Part shown: piece by piece, positions 5,131 through 64,000 of the stretch
Layout of the letters: every line of letters starts with the position of its first letter
How positions within the stretch are numbered: position 1 is the stretch's first letter
NCBI GenBank assembly: GCA_044892525.1
Contig: CM097886.1
Coordinates: 92,194,001 to 92,258,000, forward strand
From: Schmidtea polychroa
Lineage: Eukaryota
Direction of reading: 5' to 3'
DNA length: 64,000 nucleotides
Program-made: the position numbers and the translations under genes
The notes under the pieces: model-generated
Told to the model about the DNA's origin: nothing
The model's input: only the letters and a program-made list of their open reading frames with translations
Database searches by the model: none

Positions 5131-5572
5131 ATTAATTCTAGTTTTTTGTAATTATTTCCTTATTTTTCAGTAAAAGAAGTTATTAAATAAAGGTTCTTTG
5201 TGGGAAAAAAACAAAGAACTTTTATTTAAAAGGTAGTTGAACTAGTGGGTATGAGCATTTTAATATCGCACTAAAATGATATTGATTTTTGAGTATCAGT
5301 AACATCCTGGTACTGAAAATATTATTATTTGAAATCACTTAGACACATGTATTTTATTAAAAATGGTTTATTGGTGCACAAAATATTCAATAAAAAAATT
5401 AATTTGTTTTAGAAATGGCCAGGCTACCTGCTAAATCACTGATCTGTCAGAAATAGTGGATTGAAAATTTTCCACTTGAACGAGGAATTCATAGTAAACT
5501 CAAGTCACCAGCTTTCGCTCATTACGTCCCTGCCCTTTGCACACTCCGACCGTGGCTACTACCGATTGAGTA

Positions 5573-5680
5573 AAATAATTTTCGACTATAACAAGACTAT
5601 AGTCGAAAATTATTTCATTTGTATTAAATATATTATTTGCATCAAAAGGCTTAAATTATCATTTAATTGTTTAAAATTCC
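5573..5680. repeat. Perfect 18-bp-stem hairpin; collapsed copy of the hammerhead-like palindromic family
   Basis: AAATAATTTTCGACTATA (5573-5590), 7-nt loop, TATAGTCGAAAATTATTT (5598-5615), followed by the family flank ...AAAAGGCTTAAATTATCATTTAATTGTTT. Confidence 0.8.
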
Positions 5681-7475
5681 ATTTTATACTAAACCCAAGA
5701 GAATTGTCAAAATGATTAGTTTTCCTTAACACTTAAACCACTGAAATAAAATTACGAGGACAAACCAAACTCAACCAAACTGACCGTTACAAGCAAACCA
5801 TGTGCTTGATCGTTTTCAAACCTGCAAATTGTGGTGTGTAGTTTTACAGACGAAAAACGGTCTTACTGTTTGGAAGGCGAAAATATGTATATATAATCCT
5901 TTTTAAAATTGTGTAAAAAGACAGAATTAATTTAAGAAAATAATTATTAGAAAAATTGATAGTGATTCCTGAGAATCAATTTTAATGAAGTATAATTGGT
6001 AATAAACGTTGGTACATGAATTTAATTTTTCAATAATTTAAAAATAATATAATTAATGCATTATTTAAAATCAAAATAGTAACTAAAAATTTAAATTTTA
6101 AAGTTAAATTTTTTTGTAATTAATTATAATCCCATAGGACTGGATTTATTGAGTGTTTTACTGTTGATTTACATAACATCAAATATTTTAATAATATCGC
6201 TCAATTTTGATTTTTATATCGACGTCTGATTAATTGTGAAAATAACTTATTTATAGTTTTGAAATTTCGAATTATTTATTTTCATTATATTTTTAATAAA
6301 TATTATTTGTTTAAATTTTTATAGTTTTTTTTGTTTTTAGTGTACCTTTTATAAAGATTATTTTATAATTGGTTCTCAAAATAAATTTTAATTAAAATTA
6401 ATATAAATTATTAGTAAAATCATTTTTAAATTTTATTTACATTTTTTTCTTTTATAATTTCATTTATCTTCCTTTAGATTTTGACTATAAATCAATATTT
6501 TTTCCTAATTAAGTCAAATAATATTACTTATTTAATCATCCTATAAATTATATTATTACATAAATATAAATATGATACTACTATCAATATTTGAAAACGA
6601 CCATCGAACATCATCAAGTTAAACCAAAAAATCTATATAGATTTTAAATTGCTTATTCAAATAAAACTTAATTTTTAGAAACTATAAACTAAATAATTTA
6701 TAAATTCATAAATGTTTTTATTAATCGATTCAGTCAACAAGTTCTGGGTCAAACTCTGTGTGTATTACATGACACTGAAGTGGCTAATGTAAACACAATC
6801 ATACACACTATTACATAATCAGAGAGTTATACATAACTCATCAGTATGTGAATTGTGTGTAATATTGCATAATGTTAATATTTTGTTTTCATGAATTGAT
6901 CGCCATTTATAATTGTAATGAATATCTTAAATTTATTACGTAACGTGAGTGATTAATTGAATGTTGGCTAAAGCTGTGATGTGAGAGTTGGTGATTGAAA
7001 GTCGTTAAAAGGAGGGTAAAGTTAGTGTGAGAGTGAAAAATGGGAAAGCCTGTGAAGTGGATCAAGACCATTAAAATCTTTTATATTACTATTGTACAAC
7101 AAAAGCCCTATGAAGGCAGGATTAGGGATGCATTTAATTATAACCAAAGACTTGGACAGTGAGCAGATCTTGCGTTTAAAAAAAAATTAACTATTTGAAA
7201 TAATAAAACAAAAAAACTTACTTTGTAATTTTAAATTAATTTATTAAATTTAAAATTATTCTAAACTAAAATTTAAGCAATAAAATTTACTTAACTTTTA
7301 ATTTAAGTTTTATATTAACTTAAAATTTATTTTAGAAATTTATAATACTTTCCCTTAAAAAAAATTATTTACTTGAAACCTAATGGTTCTTTAAAATTTT
7401 AACTTTGTTAAACGCAATTAAATTCAAATATTCTTCCAACATTTATTTATTAATTACAATATTACATTCTCGAAT

Positions 7476-7804
7476 ATGAGTATTGATACTAACAAACAAG
7501 ATGAGCCAAAATATGCGATGGTATTGCCGTATTCTGAAGGATATAAAGATTTCGAAAGAAAGATAGGTAAACAGCTGGGTAAATTGAATTATAGAATTGT
7601 TTCCAAACCGTGCAAAGTACTTAGTATGTTTGTTAATAAATCTCAAACGCCGGTTGGATTGTGTTCGGATCTCGTTTATCAATTCACATGTAATGGGTGT
7701 AATGCCACATACATTGGAGAGACTTCCCATCATCTCTGTACTCGAGTTCAAGAACACTGTCGACGGAAGGGAGTGTCCAATATTAAGTATCATAATAAAG
7801 TTTG
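7476..7804 (+). mobile_element. Penelope-like element family A, 5'-truncated; linker and N-terminal half of GIY-YIG endonuclease
   Basis: VLPYSEG...LVYQFTCNGCNATYIGETSHHLCTRVQEH; frame interrupted at the LTR insertion and resumes at 14786. Confidence 0.88.
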
Positions 7805-8433
7805 TGTAATGTATTGTAATTATTTATTTTTCTTGGTTTTGTTAACCGTATGTTATAAATGTAAATTACAATTCTTCACGTCGTACGTGGCGAAGGTTTT
7901 ATTTTATGTTTGTAAAAAAACAAACTATATAGTGATAATTTACTATGGTAAATTATCACTATAGGAAAAAATTGAATTTAAAAAAATCGATAACTACAAA
8001 TTAAAAAATTATCAAAACAAGAAACAGTAAATTGGGAAATTTCAAGATCCAACAGTTATAATTCGGAAGCTCTCCCAACGACTACTCAAAGGATTAGATC
8101 AAATACTCGTATAATCTCGAACCATACACTTACTTTTTCATATCCCATTATTATTCGAACTTAAAAAGCTTACTCAAAGATTAATCACTGAAGAAAAGCT
8201 ATATTGTCAGAAGTAACCTTATATTGGTTTTTAGTTAATAAAAATTTTAAAGTGTTATAATAATTGTTGTATATTAATTTGATTTTCTTTTTTATTGTAT
8301 TTTTCGCATCAAAACAAAACACAGCCTGCACCCCGATTGTCCCGCCACATTTGTTTTTATCGGTGACTCTTTCTGGCTCATCAATTTTCCTGATTGCATT
8401 AAATAACAATAAAAATAACATTATTACTTAACA
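7805..8433 (+). repeat. 5' LTR
   Basis: TGTAATG...TAACA; I counted 5 transitions versus the 3' LTR. Confidence 0.97.
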
Positions 8434-14785: not shown

Positions 14786-15250
14786 GTTTGTATGAAAGAA
14801 TTAGGAATGTCGGATTTTAAAATATTCTCAAAAAACTTTGATAATTGTTTTGAGCGTGTGATATGAGAAGCATTATTGATAAGAACTTTTAATCCTAAAA
14901 TCAATGTAAAGATTGCAGTGAACACGTGTGTGTTGAATGTTTTTAATTAAGTTTTTGTATGTTGATGTATATTAATAATAGTTATGTTAAATAATTAAAA
15001 AAAATAATTAAAATAATATTTTTAAATAATTTTAAAAGTTTAAAATAATTGATTGTTGAAAATTATTTTAAAAATAATTGTTTAAAATTGTTATTTATAA
15101 TTTAAAAAATTATAAATTTGTCTATATATTATCAATATAGTTTAGTTATTCATCCGTCGTGAATGTAGGTAACCTGATGATGATAATGATTCTATCGAAA
15201 TATATAGTGAAAAAGATGTACGAATGGCGATTTAGACAAATAAATATTTA
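14786..15250 (+). mobile_element. Penelope-like element family A, C-terminal half of GIY-YIG and 3' terminal region
   Basis: Joining 7804 to 14791 restores HNKVCMKELGMSDFKIF...*EALLIRTFNPKINV...VF N* (stop 14948-14950); hammerhead motif ~225 nt downstream. Confidence 0.85.
15171..15209 (+). ncRNA. Minimal type I hammerhead ribozyme motif (PLE type), slightly decayed
   Basis: AAC-CTGATGA-T-GATA...TATC-GAAA-TATA-TA-GTG; core intact, UA cleavage site after 15206. Confidence 0.65.
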
Positions 15251-18986: not shown

Positions 18987-19100
18987 TTATAAGAACTTTT
19001 TTTTCGAATTTCACCACTGATTTTTTCCATTGAATTAATTAAAAGAGCTTGAAGACTATAAATATCGATGTTTTTGATATATAGTCTTCAAGCTCTTTTT
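18987..19100. mobile_element. Collapsed copy of long-TIR MITE family C (perfect 20-bp hairpin)
   Basis: AAAAGAGCTTGAAGACTATA 19041-19060 and TATAGTCTTCAAGCTCTTTT 19080-19099, preceded by the family leader TTATAAGAACTTTTT...TTTCACCACTGATTT. Confidence 0.7.
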
Positions 19101-20622
19101 AATAAATTTTTTAGTTTGATACAATTTAATAACGATTATTATTTGTTAATTGTTTGAATATTCTTATTTTTATTTAGTTCCTATTCATTTATTATTTCTA
19201 GCATAAAGAAGACTGTTAAACGGTCGAAATATATAACAATATTATATTTTAATATACTTAGTTGGCGATTTTCAATTATTAAAGCAATTTTATTATTTAC
19301 TTAATATAAATCAATATTAATTAGGAAAGACTTTAAATATTTCTCTATTAATATGTTATAAGTACCAAATAATTAATACAAAATTAAAACAGAATCAAAC
19401 TTTAATGATGTAAAAAATGTTTCCTTATCAAATTTAAGCTTCAAAATAATATTAAATAAACACATTTTAATTACTCGATTTGCAATATTAAAAAGCATAA
19501 TTATTATTAAAATTTATCTTTATAATATATTTATTTTCATTAAATTTGTGATGAAATTCGCACAGTAAATATCGAGGGAGAGAAAACCGTCTAGCTGTTA
19601 AATGTGATTAATGCCATCTATTTTTCAATGATTAATATTAATTTAGCAAAATATAATTTATTCAGTAATAATTTCATTGTTTTATTTTTTTTCCAGAAAA
19701 ATATTTTTTTACCTATAATTAAACTCAATAAATAGAAAAAATGAAAAATGAAAAATTTATTAAATTTACTTAGCTTCAAATATAGAAAGAATTCGTTTTT
19801 ATTTATTAATATTAAATTAAGGAGCTATATATAATACATTAATTATAGAAATTTTTTGTTAACAAATATTTGCCTTAAAATAAGAAAATTTACTAGAAAT
19901 TTAAATTAAAAAAGATTTTATATATATTCTAATCAAACTTAGTTTTTGTTTATATCAACCAGGTTTACCAATCAGATTCGCTTATCTTCAGTTTTTGTCT
20001 AAAATTGATTTTCGTATCTATTTACTATTTTTTTCTTTAGAAATGTCTTTAACCCTATTATTACCAGGTTATTATTACAATAAATAACAGTGAAAACATT
20101 TTTGAACGATTTAGATCAGCTAATATAGATCTGGAAGAACATTCAAGCTATGATTCGCCTTAAAAGTTAAATAATGGTATCTTCAGAAACGTGATGGAGT
20201 TGCATCCAAAGTTCATAAGTCGAGAGATTGCTGGCTCAATGCTGAAATCAGAAACCACAAAACGCTTTTCTTTAATTATTCTTAGAAAAGAATTTGAATG
20301 AGTTTTCAAATAAAATGAAATATATTTACCAAATTCTTTAAGAAAATCCAAAATATTTTTTGACTTAATTCTTTTTGCTTTCAATATTGAAATTAGCAAA
20401 GAAATAATTAATATGAAGATTAGTTAGTTAATTTTATTTTCTGGCAGAAATTTATTTTCCTTTGGAATTTTAAAATTTCCTTGTTAACAAAAATAGTAAC
20501 GAATTGTATTCATTTTTGTTAGAAAATTAAAATCAAAGATTTTGTTACGTAGTAAAATTTGGGGAAATTATAATTTATTTGACAAGACACTAATAATAGA
20601 AAATTACGAAAATATCATTATT

Positions 20623-21260
20623 GGAAATGTCTGTATACTGAGGATTTTCCACCAGGATCTAGATGTTCTTTAACTCTTTGGTCCAAGTTCTTGAGCGTAC
20701 TTCCAATGAATATTTCATTGCATACATTCCACGTGATGCAGTAGACAACGTTTTTTCAAAAGCATATTTTCTTCGGTGTTTTGTTTTCCAGTTTTCCATT
20801 GTGCAAATATTTTCTTTTTTTGCGTTGTTTTCCAGAGCTTCTATACATATCCCAGACTTATGTGCTAAACAGGTTTAAGGGCCATCATGCTTAATGTTTT
20901 TTAGGATCTTAAAGACGAGTATCTCGCTGATGAATGGAATATTCAGATAAAAATATTTCTTTTTTTTTGTTATCTCACTAGGTCTTTGTGGATTTGAATT
21001 CATTGCTTCAATATATTTATTGTGATAGGCGTTTTTGTGTAGGACATTTTTGAAGTTAAGTTGATATATATTGATTGGCTATCCTTTGTTTCACGTTTTA
21101 TATTACTTTCTGTTAGTATGAAAGTGTTGATTTTTTGTGCATAAATATTTCCATACGGGCTAGTTTTTTCTAGAATTCGCCGGTGAGTGTCTATTTCAAT
21201 TTTAATTTTTAAATCCAATGAGAACCAGAAAGGACCATCACTGAGAACAAACACTGAGGA
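20623..21260 (-). mobile_element. Penelope-like element family B remnant (RT thumb, linker, GIY-YIG), frameshifted
   Basis: Minus-strand pieces LHKNAYHNKYIE, KKKYFYLNIPFISE, NVVYCITWNVCNEIFIGSTLKNLDQRVKEHLDPGGKSSVYRH; DNA aligns with 63525-64000. Confidence 0.82.
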
Positions 21261-26209: not shown

Positions 26210-26914
26210 TTTCCAAAGATTCTTTACATGTTCTGTATTGAGCAAGTCGCCAAATTATTTTAGTTATACTTAAAAAAGGCTTCCAAAAATCAAGATTTCC
26301 CGATATGGATAAAAACTGAACTGATAAGCAATCCTTTTCGATTGAGTTCAGAGCACTATATTCATTGAAAATTAATAATGAGTTAATAGGATATATAAAT
26401 ATTTGCGCAAATATTATTTGTCTAGTATTTTGAAAAAAGAAACAATACGATAACAAATTGGGCACTTTACTAAATATGCCAATTTAGTTATCATGATGTA
26501 ATCCTTACAACAGATGTACTACTTTCGATAATATATTTAACATTCATCAACATTTGTTTTCCTATAATATTTGTTTTACTACATTATATTAATTAAGTTT
26601 CACTAAAATAGCTTTTGTTTAAATTTAATATTTTATGCAAATAAAAAAAAGTGTCTTCAAAAATAAAAGTTTGTCAATCTTTAAGTTAAATGAAACATAT
26701 AACAAAAAATATAAATTTGTTTAGATTGAAATATCAAAAATAATGTAACCAAACTAAAATAACACAAAAGACTTTTTAAAAAACAGATAATGCTATTTTT
26801 AGTTTTCTATTAAAACATATTTTTATATTGTGTAACAAATTTTTCATAGTTATCTTGGGCAATTCTATAAAATCATCACTAAAAGGTTTTTGTCAAATTA
26901 TAATATAAATATTA

Positions 26915-27160
26915 AAAAAGCAAATAATAATACACGCCTTTTGCTGCAAAGTTTCTATTCAATAAAATGAAATAATTTTCGACTATAAAAACAATCCTTA
27001 TCAATCCTTTTCAATATCAAGAAATTGATAAGGATTATTTTTATAATCAAAAATTAGTTCATTTTATTTAATATATACTTTGCGGCATAAGGCTCATATT
27101 ATCATTTACTTGTTTAACATTCAATTAATGCTGCGACCAAGAAATCATCACTTTATACTA
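26915..27160. repeat. ~200-bp imperfect palindrome made of two inverted hammerhead-like units plus a shared tail
   Basis: Left arm 26915-27005 and right arm 27024-27118 are reverse complements with mismatches; each reads TTGATAAG-GATTRT-TTTT-ATARTC-(G/A)AAA-ATTA(T/G)T-TC-ATTTT. Confidence 0.8.
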
Positions 27161-31500: not shown

Positions 31501-32640
31501 CACCCGTTTCCACAATATAAGAGTTTCTATAATCTAAAAAAAAAATCGATAAAATTATATTATAGCAACACACAAACTTACCTGTGTGCAAAAATTTAAT
31601 GTTCCGAATGTTAAAAGTTTTATTATAGGAATTGAGAAAGTGACAGAAAAATAATTTTACATACAAACACAGGACACATAATATAAAATACACGCAAATT
31701 TAATATAGCTTTTTTTGTTCCGAAAGTAGAGAGTCATTAACATACTGTTAACATATCATTAATTTAAAATTATTAAAATTCATGGCTGAAAAAAATTTGG
31801 ATTTTGAATCTGACAACTCAACTTTGAGTTTTTGAGAAATGGACGACAAAACATCGTAAGATCTATTTATAAAATATTTTTGAAGTTAATATTTCTTTAG
31901 ATTTTCAGATATTTCTTTGGAGACATTTCCATTTTGCGAAGGTGAAGATCTGACAATGTAAGAATTTTTTTATTTAATTACAAATAATTAAAATATTTTA
32001 CAGCATATCAGATATTTCTAGTCAAACGCCTTTGTGTGAAGATATTCAACAAGTTCCATCGACATTTTTGGAATTGAAGAAAAAAATTCGAAAATCGTAA
32101 ATTTTAATAACTAAAAAAAAAATAATATTTTCAAAGAATTTCAGAAAATGACAAAATCCGTCTCATCAATCCATATGAAAATGGAGAAAATTATAAAGAT
32201 TTTGGAAGATTACTGGGAATCTCCAAAAAATCGATTGGAACCATTATTTCTTAAAAAAATAAATGTTTTTGGTGATTATTTTATTTCTTTTTAGTTAAAA
32301 ATATATATAACTTACATTTTATTGAAATAATTCCAAATTCATAACATATCATAAAATACCTAAAAAAGCACCTGAAATTTAATTATCAATATATTATAAA
32401 TATATTATAAATGCTGATTACAAGTAATATTTAAGAGCTTGAATAATGATCTCATAATTATATGAAATCAAAATTCAAGCCTTAAAATATACTTAAATTT
32501 AAAAAACTTACTTCTAAAACCATAAATAAAATTGAATTGAGAATGAAAAAATGAAATAAACATTCTCATAAATGGTGAGTCATCGATAGATGAACACACC
32601 AACATGTATTATAAAGACTTTTAACATGTGGAAACGGGTG
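31501..32640 (+). mobile_element. Non-autonomous Tc1/mariner-superfamily element (1140 bp)
   Basis: TIR CACCCGTTTCCACA (perfect 14 bp, imperfect to ~33 bp) with TA target duplications at 31499-31500 and 32641-32642. Confidence 0.85.
31782..32254 (+). pseudogene. Spliced four-exon HTH (transposase N-terminus-like) ORF
   Basis: Exons 31782-31855, 31901-31957, 32004-32096, 32137-32254; GT-AG introns of 45, 46 and 40 nt, all phase 2; ends ISENDKIRLINPYENGENYKDFGRLLGISKKSIGTIIS*. There is a TGA in exon 1, but the frame is open from ATG 31839. Confidence 0.7.
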
Positions 32641-32884
32641 TAAAAGCCCAAACAAACGTAATCGGATGAAATATTATTTAAATTTTTTTCATAAACCAAT
32701 CTTTTATAATATTATTTATTAAAAATATTAAGAACTAGTTATAAAAGCTTTAAAATCTTTATTTTGTATTTTAAAGTAAATTTAATTTTTAATTCTTGAA
32801 AAAAGTTTTATTTTGATTTATTTTATCTTGAACTAATGAGAAGAGAGAAAATGGCAATGAAAGAGAAAAAGCAACTAAATTCCA

Positions 32885-32985
32885 TAAAATTGATAAGGAT
32901 TATTTGTATAGTGGACATTATTTTCATTTTGTTGAATTTATACTAAGCAGCCTTATATTATTATTTAATTGTTTAACATTTAAAT
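32885..32985 (+). repeat. Single unit of the hammerhead-like (TTGATAA) family
   Basis: AAAATTGATAAGGATTATTTGTATAGTGGACATTATTTTCATTTTG followed by the family flank. Confidence 0.65.
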
Positions 32986-33790
32986 GTAATTTTTGTAATT
33001 TATAATTATTCTAGGTCATATATATTTCAAAGGTTCAATTTCTTAAATTAAATTCTTCATTATTATATTATAATAAATTAAATTAAAAAAAACAATTACA
33101 GCAAATATACAAATATCTGACTTAAATAAATATTTGAAAATTTTTCAAAAATTATTGAAAATAAATTCATTGAAAACTTTTCTAAATTGTTTAAATCAAC
33201 ATCAAATGAAAATTAATAGATTTTTCTCATGAAAAATTTATTGAAAATAAATAATTTATTAAATAACATCAAAAACTGGTTATTGAGAAGTTGCTTGTTA
33301 CATTTTAATTCCCTATAAAATATAATTTATGACGATGTCGAAATGATAATTTCTGAAGCAGAAACAATATCAATCCGATATTCCTGAAATTATATATCGG
33401 CCATCTAAATATAATGGAGAAAGAATCGTAAGCAGTGGGAATTGAATAATTAGACATTTCTATTCATTTTCACCAATAAAAAATACATTAATGATTTTAT
33501 AACAATTCTAATGAGAAATAATTTTATTCCAAATAAATTACAATTTTTATTTGGAAACAATATAAAATATATTGCATAATATGTTATATATTTGGACTTA
33601 TACTGTGATTGAATTAGGTGTAGGATATGTCTCCTCAGACACAAACCCCTCACTGTTACATAATAATTAAACAATATAATGTAAGAATTGACATTTGACC
33701 CCTGGTAAAACTAGTCATTCACGTGGTTATGTAATGACATATCTACATACATACATGCCAACACATAGCAACTTATGCATTACTATAGTA

Positions 33791-40949: not shown

Positions 40950-41629
40950 TGACGAGAAGATTAGTTTTTCGTGCATGGTCTTTATCATCTACGTTTATTA
41001 ATTCAGTGAAAAGTGTTGATTCTCTGGTTGCTTCTTAAAAATGGATATTCTAAATCTGTTCTTACTCGCATGACAAAATAGATAAATCGATGTTGAATAC
41101 TCATGATCCTTGCACAGGTTTATTTGAAGGTAATGATCATATATTGATCCTGATATTAAAGTTAATATGTTGTCAAGTTCCGAAGCTGAGAAATCCGATC
41201 TAAACACACTCATCAAAAATTTGTGTTTGTATTACCTTATTCAGAAGATTTCTGAGAGTTCAAGCATAAAATATTAAAACATGTAGATAAGACTATATTT
41301 AGGATTGTTTCAACGTCTTGCATGGATGGTAGCATGTTATATAATAAGTCTCCAATTTCCATGTAATGGATGTAATGTTACATACATTGGAGAGACTGCC
41401 CGTCATCTCTGCACTCGAGTTTTTGAACATTGCCAACGGAATTGATTGACTCACATTAGTGATCATTTTAAAAAGTGTACCAGTAAAAAAAGTCTTTCTG
41501 ATTTTGTCGTAAAAATTGAGCAATTACTGCGAGCCAGTAACGTGCGAGGCGTTACTCATTAGATCTTTAAATCCTATAATTAATATTCAAAGTACCCAGT
41601 CTACATTGATTTTGAATGTATTTAAATAA
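40950..41629 (+). mobile_element. Penelope-like element family A remnant
   Basis: LVFRAWSLSS, LLKNGYSK, VLPYSEDF, KHVDKTIFRIVSTSC, QFPCNGCNVTYIGETARHLCTRVFEH, EALLIRSLNPIINIQ...LNVFK*. Confidence 0.85.
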
Positions 41630-41809: not shown

Positions 41810-41935
41810 TTAATAAACAATTAAATGATAAAAAAAGCCCGTTACTGCGAAGTATATATTCAATACAATGAAAAAAACATTTGACTATAAAAATAATCGT
41901 TAATAATCCTTAGGAAATTCATAAGGATTATTGTA
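41810..41935 (-). repeat. Decayed unit of the hammerhead-like palindromic family just downstream of the PLE remnant
   Basis: AAACAATTAAATGATAA...TACTGCGAAGTATATATTCAATACAATG...TTTGACTATAAAAATAATC matches the left arm at 26915-27000. Confidence 0.6.
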
Positions 41936-46711: not shown

Positions 46712-46989
46712 TTAAATAAGATTTATTCAAGCTGTTTGTCACATGCAAAATGATGTAATCAGGTTTCCAAAACATTTATATACACATCAAGTTATAATTC
46801 CTATTGAAAACTCTAAAATATAATATATACAATTAAAAGTTTTCTAGAAAAGACAAACCCTAAAAGTATCTTGTTGAAGAACGACTCAACAATTTCAATT
46901 GTTTCAGCTGCAGAATGTCATAAAAAGACAAGTGGGACGAAAAATAAAAGTACAAAAGGATTTATCAATATTGCAAACCTAATATTAAA

Positions 46990-47080
46990 CAATTAAATGA
47001 TAATTTTAGCATTTTGCTGCGAATAATATATTTATTACAAATGAAAATATTTTCGACTATAAGATAGTCCTTGTTGATTA
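46990..47080 (-). repeat. Unit of the hammerhead-like family
   Basis: Minus strand AATCAACAAG-GACTAT-CTT-ATAGTC-GAAA-ATATTT-TC-ATTTG plus the family flank. Confidence 0.6.
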
Positions 47081-47297
47081 ATTATTTGGTTAATTATTAT
47101 TTTTTTATTCTTAACATATTGAATTTAATTTAGTAATTTATTAATTAATGTTAAAATTTAAAAAAATAATATATTATTTAAATTATAATTTTTAAAAGAA
47201 TGAAATGTTTTTATTAAAAAATGTTTTTATATAATTAATAATTAATACAATTAATAAATTTGTTTAAAAATCCTTAATTTTTATAGTTATTATATAC

Positions 47298-47336
47298 CAC
47301 CTGATGATGACAGGAAAACTGTCGAAATATATCGTG
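47298..47336 (+). ncRNA. Intact minimal type I hammerhead ribozyme (PLE type)
   Basis: CAC-CTGATGA-T-GACAG-GAAAA-CTGTC-GAAA-TATA-TC-GTG; predicted cleavage after C47333; palindromic ATATAT in place of helix III. Confidence 0.8.
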
Positions 47337-63524: not shown

Positions 63525-64000
63525 GGATATCAAGGTAAGGAGATTGAAAGAATGAAATCGACCCCAAAAATATCTATGGAGATAACACAAAAAAAGAAGA
63601 AATATTTTTATCTTAATATCTCATTCATCAGTGACATACTCGACTTCAAAATCCTAAAAGAATTAAAACGCACAGGCCTTCCTATTCGTATAGCAGATAA
63701 ATATTGGATATTGAGAAAAGCTCTGGGAAACAACGCGAAAAAAGGAAACAATTGCACAAAAGAGATATGCTTTGCACCAAAGAGTTAAAGAACATCTAGA
63801 TCCTAGTGAAAAATCCTCTGTATACAGATTTTTCCAAAAATGTCAACCAAGGAAGGAAAGAAAAAATATTTTTATCGAAATCTTAGCCAATGAAAACATC
63901 CAAAAAAAGTCATATTTAATGAACCAATTCTCATTATAAACAGACAGCCAACAATCAACACTAAAGAAGAAATCAATGAAATCATCAATTTGATTTGTTG
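63525..64000 (+). mobile_element. Penelope-like element family B remnant with the VY..C..C..YIG segment deleted
   Basis: GYQGKEIE...KKKYFYLNISFISD..., then HQRVKEHLDPSEKSSVYRF and EPILIINRQPTINTKEE; colinear with 20623-21000 except for the deletion. Confidence 0.82.

Follow-up and report, generated by a model that had tools for sequence, protein, structure and literature searches.

Minimal hammerhead ribozymes in which a U3-A8 pair takes the place of C3-G8 in the core have been published from Penelope-like elements (PLEs) of Schistosoma mansoni, with about 1,300 hits and with pairs on opposite strands (Cervera and De la Pena 2014, PMC4209133). Schistosoma_mansoni(3), UUGAUAAA, and Schistosoma_mansoni(4), UUGAAAAA, are two such examples. 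The same article describes minimal PLE hammerheads as cutting poorly even with C3-G8. Published statements on the exchange itself differ: natural U3-A8 covariation is stated to be active in vitro (PMC3088659), whereas a full double-mutant scan of another hammerhead is reported to have rescued only C3G/G8C (PMC9901934). An earlier note on the DNA studied here had taken tolerance of the swap as established, which agrees with the first source and not with the second.

Two other systems concern the surroundings of the motif. Endonuclease-bearing (EN+) PLEs with a C-terminal GIY-YIG domain are described as leaving a 5'-truncated unit, an adjacent inverted copy and a 30-40-bp tail, with a bias toward microsatellites (PMC8557442); all of these are present in the family described below. 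For Poseidon of Anolis carolinensis (PAc; Frangieh et al. 2024, PMC11167929), in vitro work is reported in which reverse transcription starts internally at sites bounding the tail, both strands are extended, the target is ATT, unprocessed RNA predominates as substrate, and the ribozyme is active only with protein.

The locus lies in a window of 64,000 nucleotides from Schmidtea polychroa. At 26908-27159 it is a 5'-truncated PLE insertion made up of an inverted arm, a forward arm and a one-sided tail of 38 nt. The inverted, tail-less arm (26908..27005, minus strand in the element sense) has a boundary common to 27 aligned genomic loci. A joint that varies among copies in the alignment of genomic loci (27006..27018) leads to the forward arm of 141 nt (27019..27159, plus strand), which begins at 27019, a base matching the wall of 5' ends discussed below, and extends through 5' UTR sequence as far as the opening codons of the ORF. 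The tail occupies 27122..27159 on the plus strand, where 27128-27159 are the first 32 nt of an RT/GIY-YIG frame; just these 32 nt of the element ORF are present at this locus, the full frame being known from other copies. The inverted pair, 26889-27005 and 27024-27140, has arms of 117 nt that are 79% complementary, and the folding computation gives a single long hairpin of -71 kcal/mol for the locus. Both arms carry TTGATAAG-GAT(T/G)T-TTTT-AT(A/G)TC, a 6-bp hairpin and an A-rich box. The earlier note had described the motif as arranged in inverted pairs; the pair is confirmed, but the arrangement is the ordinary footprint of a PLE insertion and owes nothing to the ribozyme. A head-to-head locus, dispersed copies and the lack of head-to-tail hammerhead units separate the family from non-LTR retrozymes (for retrozyme context see bioRxiv 10.64898/2026.07.22.740005).

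We are highly confident of the two identities, PLE stub and minimal hammerhead. The fuller reading takes the locus for an old stub, head to head, of a PLE that carries an endonuclease, with a U3-A8 minimal hammerhead motif at the beginning of each arm; it is very likely. The motif probably represents a copy of the element RNA's uncut 5' end, and at this locus it is likely inactive. The case combines things already known, a decayed inverted PLE stub and a known hammerhead variant; both the U3-A8 core and the inverted stub being in print, its value as a discovery is small.

The motif with a complete core is in the left arm (26969..27008, minus strand), as judged from sequence, register and pairing. 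Positions U3-A9 fall at 27004-26998, a bulged G at 26997, and helix II at 26996-26981, with 6 bp of which two are G-U. G12-A15.1 follow at 26980-26977, AAUU at 26977-26974 and A17 at 26973, so that the predicted cut lies between 26973 and 26972. Helix I has just 3 bp in this arm because its 5' strand runs into the arm joint. The right-arm motif (27021..27060, plus strand) is decayed: its core at 27025-27031 is intact, and it has G12>A at 27049 and U1.1>G at 27057. G12 is the catalytic base of hammerheads, and the right-arm motif is therefore predicted to be inactive. In any RNA that reads through the locus, both motifs are predicted to be trapped in the long hairpin.

The register of the family is G12 A13 A14 A15.1 A15.2 U16.2 U16.1 H17, followed by UUUC, with a helix I of 4 bp (A-U, R-U, A-U, G-C). 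In the young copies this gives four contiguous pairs in helix I (A-U, G-U, A-U, G-C). The published Schmidtea PLE motif, with an AGA/UUU helix I and A17, has the same arrangement (PMC4209133). A different register, with cleavage after TC, had been proposed in the earlier note. We rejected it, since it yields A-A, G-U, A-U and G-A in the young family, that is, two pairs; the predicted site is 4 nt upstream, after AAUU-H. The A-A mismatch at 1.1/2.1 that had been entered as a caveat came from the misplaced cut, and it disappears in the AAUU-H/UUUC register. Position 17 is C in 78, U in 58, A in 35 and G in none of 171 copies. The AAUU of the 15.1-16.1 region is palindromic, so that two copies could pair through it as helix III. 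The short helix I, the NUH site and the palindromic 15.1-16.1 are thus all found, and the core of a type I minimal hammerhead (positions 3-9, G12-A13-A14-A15.1 and a Watson-Crick 3-8 pair) is present in the family and, at this locus, in the left arm only. This bears out the proposal of a U3-A8 core with a 9/10.1 insertion of the PLE type. Among young-class copies the GAAA box is conserved at 96-100% per position and the bulged G at 9/10.1 occurs in 94 of 100; helix II, closed by G10.1-C11.1, forms 6 of 6 pairs in a young copy, with pairing probabilities of 0.66-0.87.

These features resemble Sm3 and Sm4 of S. mansoni as published: a U3-A8 core (UUGAUAA or UUGAAAA), an extra base at 9/10.1, a long helix II, a short helix I, no real helix III, a palindromic 15.1-16.1, a position in the pLTR and opposite-strand pairs (PMC4209133). 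The comparison is one of features and not of ancestry. The family described here differs in host and in sequence (GAYUAU/AUARUC, AAUU, bulged G), and has at least about 3000 copies and young, intact elements. The variant is not new, the type having been described in Schistosoma; none of the papers listed by a literature search, with subscription papers, Repbase and Dfam outside its scope, names this particular U3-A8 family.

Genome-wide counts were made in the AT-rich genome of 781 Mb. The 272-nt locus as query gave at least 82 matches, from 40 scored among 2791 candidates. A motif pattern that specifies 23 letters has 2996 exact matches, and its reversed control has none. Position 8, left free in this pattern, is A in all of the 100 matches listed of the 2996. 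With the helix II of this family, matches that start with C3 number 43 in the whole genome, 40 of them C3-A8 and 3 C3-G8. We parsed 273 distinct copies, of which 171 have the full motif and 102 do not; U3 occurs together with A8 in 145 of the 171, and C3 with G8 in one. Among the 84 copies first met through an anchor downstream of the motif, 73 have U3 and A8 and none has C3 and G8. U3-A8 is thus fixed in the family and is not a product of decay; whether the genome-wide consensus is CTGATGA, a check that the earlier note had set, is answered in the negative, and the notion of decayed CTGATGA copies was rejected with only the three C3-G8 matches above sharing this helix II. At one locus (L262) a C3-G8 motif is likely a change after insertion, because the other arm of that insertion has TTGATAAG. 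Another (L258, G000:C1:27565005) has a single C3-G8 motif with a GATTAT/ATAGTC helix II and AATT, followed by unrelated downstream sequence, and is possibly a remnant of an intermediate family. A loose search for further U3-A8 families gave 1100 matches against 81 in its control; the main new class was GIY-YIG coding sequence and not ribozyme, and the 100 rows listed of the 1100 contained no further U3-A8 family. The expectation that CUGANGA searches miss the family proved correct: such a descriptor passes over the motif, and the Rfam hammerhead models match nothing in the window at E<=1, nor at E<=10 in a pair of young full-length loci, so that descriptors and models together miss about 3000 copies here.

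Covariation within the family is real and thin. In the young length class, 93 of 100 copies have C-G at pair 10.3-11.3, while the 48 copies of the old class have U-A in 28, U-G in 9, C-G in 5 and non-pairing letters in 6. This two-sided change, by way of U-G, is accompanied by one one-sided change (2.2, G-U/A-U), and each probably represents a single event. The other five pairs of helix II hardly vary and are uninformative. Of the compensatory changes in helix II claimed previously, one is seen, at 10.3-11.3. Five groups defined by length and sequence were compared by their majority letters. These vary at 4 of the 6 free positions (those at 7, in loop 2 and at 17), whereas of the 13 core positions 1 varies, C11.1>U, the group concerned being small and decayed; Fisher p is 0.017, for groups that are small, related, not phylogenetically independent and partly chosen by motif patterns. 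The pattern is suggestive, and not strong.

Four other sites in the window had been cited as carrying the motif, for at least six places in total. Related pieces are indeed present at all four: a stub inverted inside helix II whose 5' core is missing (5577..5683, plus strand), a decayed copy with upstream pLTR sequence (32730..32992, plus strand) that has the core TTGATAAG at 32890 and a broken GAAA box, a decayed copy that has lost its core (41814..41932, minus strand), and a decayed copy of the class with a 3-nt loop, its core reading TCAACAA (46981..47081, minus strand). The TTGATAAG string itself, on the other hand, is found at three of the six (both arms and 32886), and a complete core with GAAA only at one, the left arm (27004-26973, minus strand), so the claim of a motif at six places is not confirmed. 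The site at 32886 has C11.1>G and A14>C, and cores 3-9 are decayed at 41868 and 47040 (both minus strand). When the window was shuffled five times (one strand), no match to the template had fewer than 11 mismatches, compared with 2, 3, 5 and 5 at the real sites; this control is partly circular, because the scoring template comes from the family itself.

The parent element is known from young copies with an RT/GIY-YIG frame of 856 codons, many of them open among 150 scored matches. One of these (L146) encodes RT (RVT_1, E 1.5e-14) along with GIY-YIG at the C terminus (E 8.2e-06). A single ORF with RT and C-terminal GIY-YIG, a pLTR hammerhead at both ends, an inverted 5'-truncated copy and a one-sided tail together place the family among EN+ PLEs. 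The motif is followed by UTR and the in-frame ATG of the long ORF in 7 of 30 loci, and in one more with a frameshift; in tandem copies it lies about 415 nt behind the stop of RT + GIY-YIG and 88-101 nt before its ATG. Inverted copies have the motif in both arms at 96-100% identity (L146-L149, L152). Stub ends match the pLTR/ORF junction, and the tail is the start of the ORF. In the alignment of 27 loci the unit is fixed and its centre variable, only one arm has a tail and (ATT)n often flanks the copies, and a one-sided tail of 30-40 bp was counted by eye in 12 of 30 rows listed. A 27-mer downstream of the motif has 90 exact matches; single-arm, inverted and longer copies are seen among 79 rows, a set that leaves aside 8 units of one tandem array and 4 other places and has one row doubled. 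The best database relatives, none of them named, are at most 47% identical over the whole query.

Several further observations concern the element and its copies. A tandem array of 869-bp units (L050-L058, G000:C1 252.407-252.416 Mb) has captured a stub of the family that lacks the 5' core. Three young copies (L149, L151, L152) sit inside other frames; to judge by resemblance, these may be the DNA polymerase B and packaging ATPase genes of a large DNA transposon. The window also contains broken PLE RT/GIY-YIG fragments 33-72% identical to the young protein, at 20621-21175 (minus strand), 63525-63998 (plus strand), 7524-7805 and 41362-41517.

Where copies of the element end at their 5' sides was mapped against L146 for 95 of the first 100 places listed of a 34-mer (4182 matches in all); the two arms of an insertion count separately. 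Sixty-four ends lie within 45 nt of the anchor and 31 copies are longer. Thirty-six ends fall at 38-45, including 8 at exactly 45, and there are none at 46-74. This wall is the A of CC/AGGAGA (the slash marks the boundary), which lies 2 nt short of helix I and has a CCAAT about 70 nt upstream of it; as far as can be told from DNA copies, it would be the start of transcription. A peak of 5' ends at the predicted cut is absent: among the matches listed, 3 of the 95 end there, and two of these are one duplicated junction. A genome pattern for ends exactly at the cut has 21 hits, namely 10 from one amplified array, 7 intact motifs with point mutations, 1 internal deletion and 3 with two unrelated flanks. 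For the 4182 anchors this leaves 3 independent junctions at the cut, compared with 1 at the next two positions by a stricter pattern, and hence no peak. Copies thus derive mostly from uncut RNA. The amplified array (L222:690-1080 and L324-L333, G000:C1 15.61-15.93 Mb) has about 70 nt of ORF start joined to the exact predicted cut without microhomology; it is one event copied 10 times, and the sole junction that resembles use of a cleaved RNA end.

These features suggest the following course of events. Transcription would start at the CC/AGGAGA wall, with the CCAAT box about 70 nt upstream, and the ribozyme would fill the first 45 nt of a 101-nt 5' UTR. The element protein would nick AAT/ATT-rich DNA on both strands, and reverse transcription would begin internally on the RNA, once shortly ahead of the ATG and once shortly past it, the two sites being about 38 nt apart. 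Each cDNA would run off the RNA 5' end, and head-to-head joining of the two would leave a palindrome of which one arm bears a tail. For intact elements, helix I (GARA/UUUC), a 6-bp helix II and a helix III made from the AAUU palindrome between two copies could support a slow cut after H17, probably only as a dimer or with the help of protein, and the cut would remove a capped leader of 37 nt. The parallel with PAc, as described, extends to a tail of ORF-start sequence between two inferred RT starts, ATT targets, uncut RNA as template and no cut-site peak of genomic 5' ends; PAc differs in having C3-G8 and an ORF that begins inside the ribozyme, whereas the ATG of the present family lies about 64 nt behind the predicted cut (PMC11167929). 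The young family with its intact frames would be a natural case for asking if minimal hammerheads with U3-A8 are able to cut, and how hammerheads serve PLEs whose templates are uncut.

Measurable cleavage by the motif of the young family is judged slightly more probable than not. The strongest alternative is a dead relic, in which the U3-A8 motif goes back to a canonical PLE hammerhead and persists by descent, or for a role as hairpin or promoter-proximal signal, and the element spreads without cleavage. Folding of the young monomer is in keeping with this, the pairing probability of the active helix I being about 0.12, a two-shifted register reaching -6.5 kcal/mol against -6.2 for the active one, and a GAAA/UUUC hairpin competing as well. 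So are the almost entirely uncut templates, the mutational scan in which U3/A8 was not rescued (PMC9901934), hammerhead mutants reported to have no insertion defect in vitro (PMC11167929) and the proliferation of PLE clades described as lacking hammerheads (PMC8557442). Yet where the groups differ, the differences are at positions 7 and 17 and in loop 2, or else leave pairing intact, and positions 3 and 8 have both changed with their pair preserved. The same swap is found in Schistosoma PLE families (PMC4209133) and is stated to be active in vitro (PMC3088659), and canonical PLE hammerheads are reported likewise to leave no cut ends (PMC11167929). We hold a dead relic to be less likely than not. 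Rather unlikely is a further proposal, that U3-A8 and the competing folds make up a selected, tuned-down ribozyme at the very 5' end of the transcript, with most RNA remaining capped as template and a slow or protein-triggered cut 37 nt in removing the cap and acting as a timer between translation and reverse transcription. Under this proposal the thousands of stubs would record, as fossils, where the RNA starts and how much of it stays uncut, well under 1% being cut, and the presence of C3-G8 and U3-A8 families side by side in one genome would offer a direct test of the role of hammerheads in PLEs.

The wall might instead be a splice acceptor, TTCCAG/GAGA, at the foot of helix I, as in Penelope of Drosophila virilis, where the end of an intron maps to the helix I 5' end (PMC4209133). 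The wall sequence does read CAG/G, but the eight longest short copies keep the AG with unrelated letters upstream and have no common exon, the pyrimidine tract is short, and the CCAAT is at promoter distance and is retained in old copies; we consider splicing improbable and continue to favour a transcription start. Contigs aligned to part of the pLTR contain no starts, ends or splice joints, and speak neither for nor against expression.

Coding constraint could in principle preserve the letters of the motif, an open frame of 55 codons crossing it in the young family (L295, L146). This frame starts in CCAATG, ends two codons short of the main ATG, with which it is in frame, and places positions 7 and 10.3 at third codon positions. 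Such a frame arises in 5.4% of Markov shuffles, however, its ATG precedes the inferred RNA start, the matching change at 11.3 does not fall on a wobble position, loop 2 differs by 1 nt between the classes, and the frame is broken in 5 of 8 copies examined, which makes this explanation very improbable. Across the motif region the length classes differ by 0 or 6 nt. A MITE, fold-back DNA transposon or microRNA-type hairpin gene with a chance likeness to hammerheads, which the 117-nt inverted arms and the hairpin of the whole locus might call to mind, was rejected as hardly credible, fixed symmetric termini being lacking: the joint is variable, the one-sided tail is the start of an ORF, single-arm copies exist, and (ATT)n flanks and continuity with the RT/GIY-YIG frame had already refuted it.

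Canonical C3-G8 minimal hammerheads of similar size occur in the same genome (3753 pattern matches, control 54). Their families have a C3-G8 core and an AUAUAU palindrome, and the linked proteins are just 25-34% identical to those of the U3-A8 family. In the window one is intact, at 47301, and others at 15174, 21635 and 19189 are more or less decayed. The copy at 47301 ends in a tail near-identical to that of the U3-A8 family; this tail is a single copy and may belong to an adjacent stub. An 18S rRNA fragment (about 5200-5570 in the window) adjoins the stub at 5573, and antisense 28S sequence lies at most 40 nt from the 5' end of another stub (L256:1312-1464); template switches to rRNA are a possible origin of both. 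The Rfam model of mir-753, a Schmidtea microRNA family and thus in keeping with a planarian host, matches a palindromic, AT-rich hairpin on both strands (81 and 55 bits), with a second, weaker copy (32428-32489 and 19037-19104); a fold-back repeat may be the source of this annotated microRNA family.
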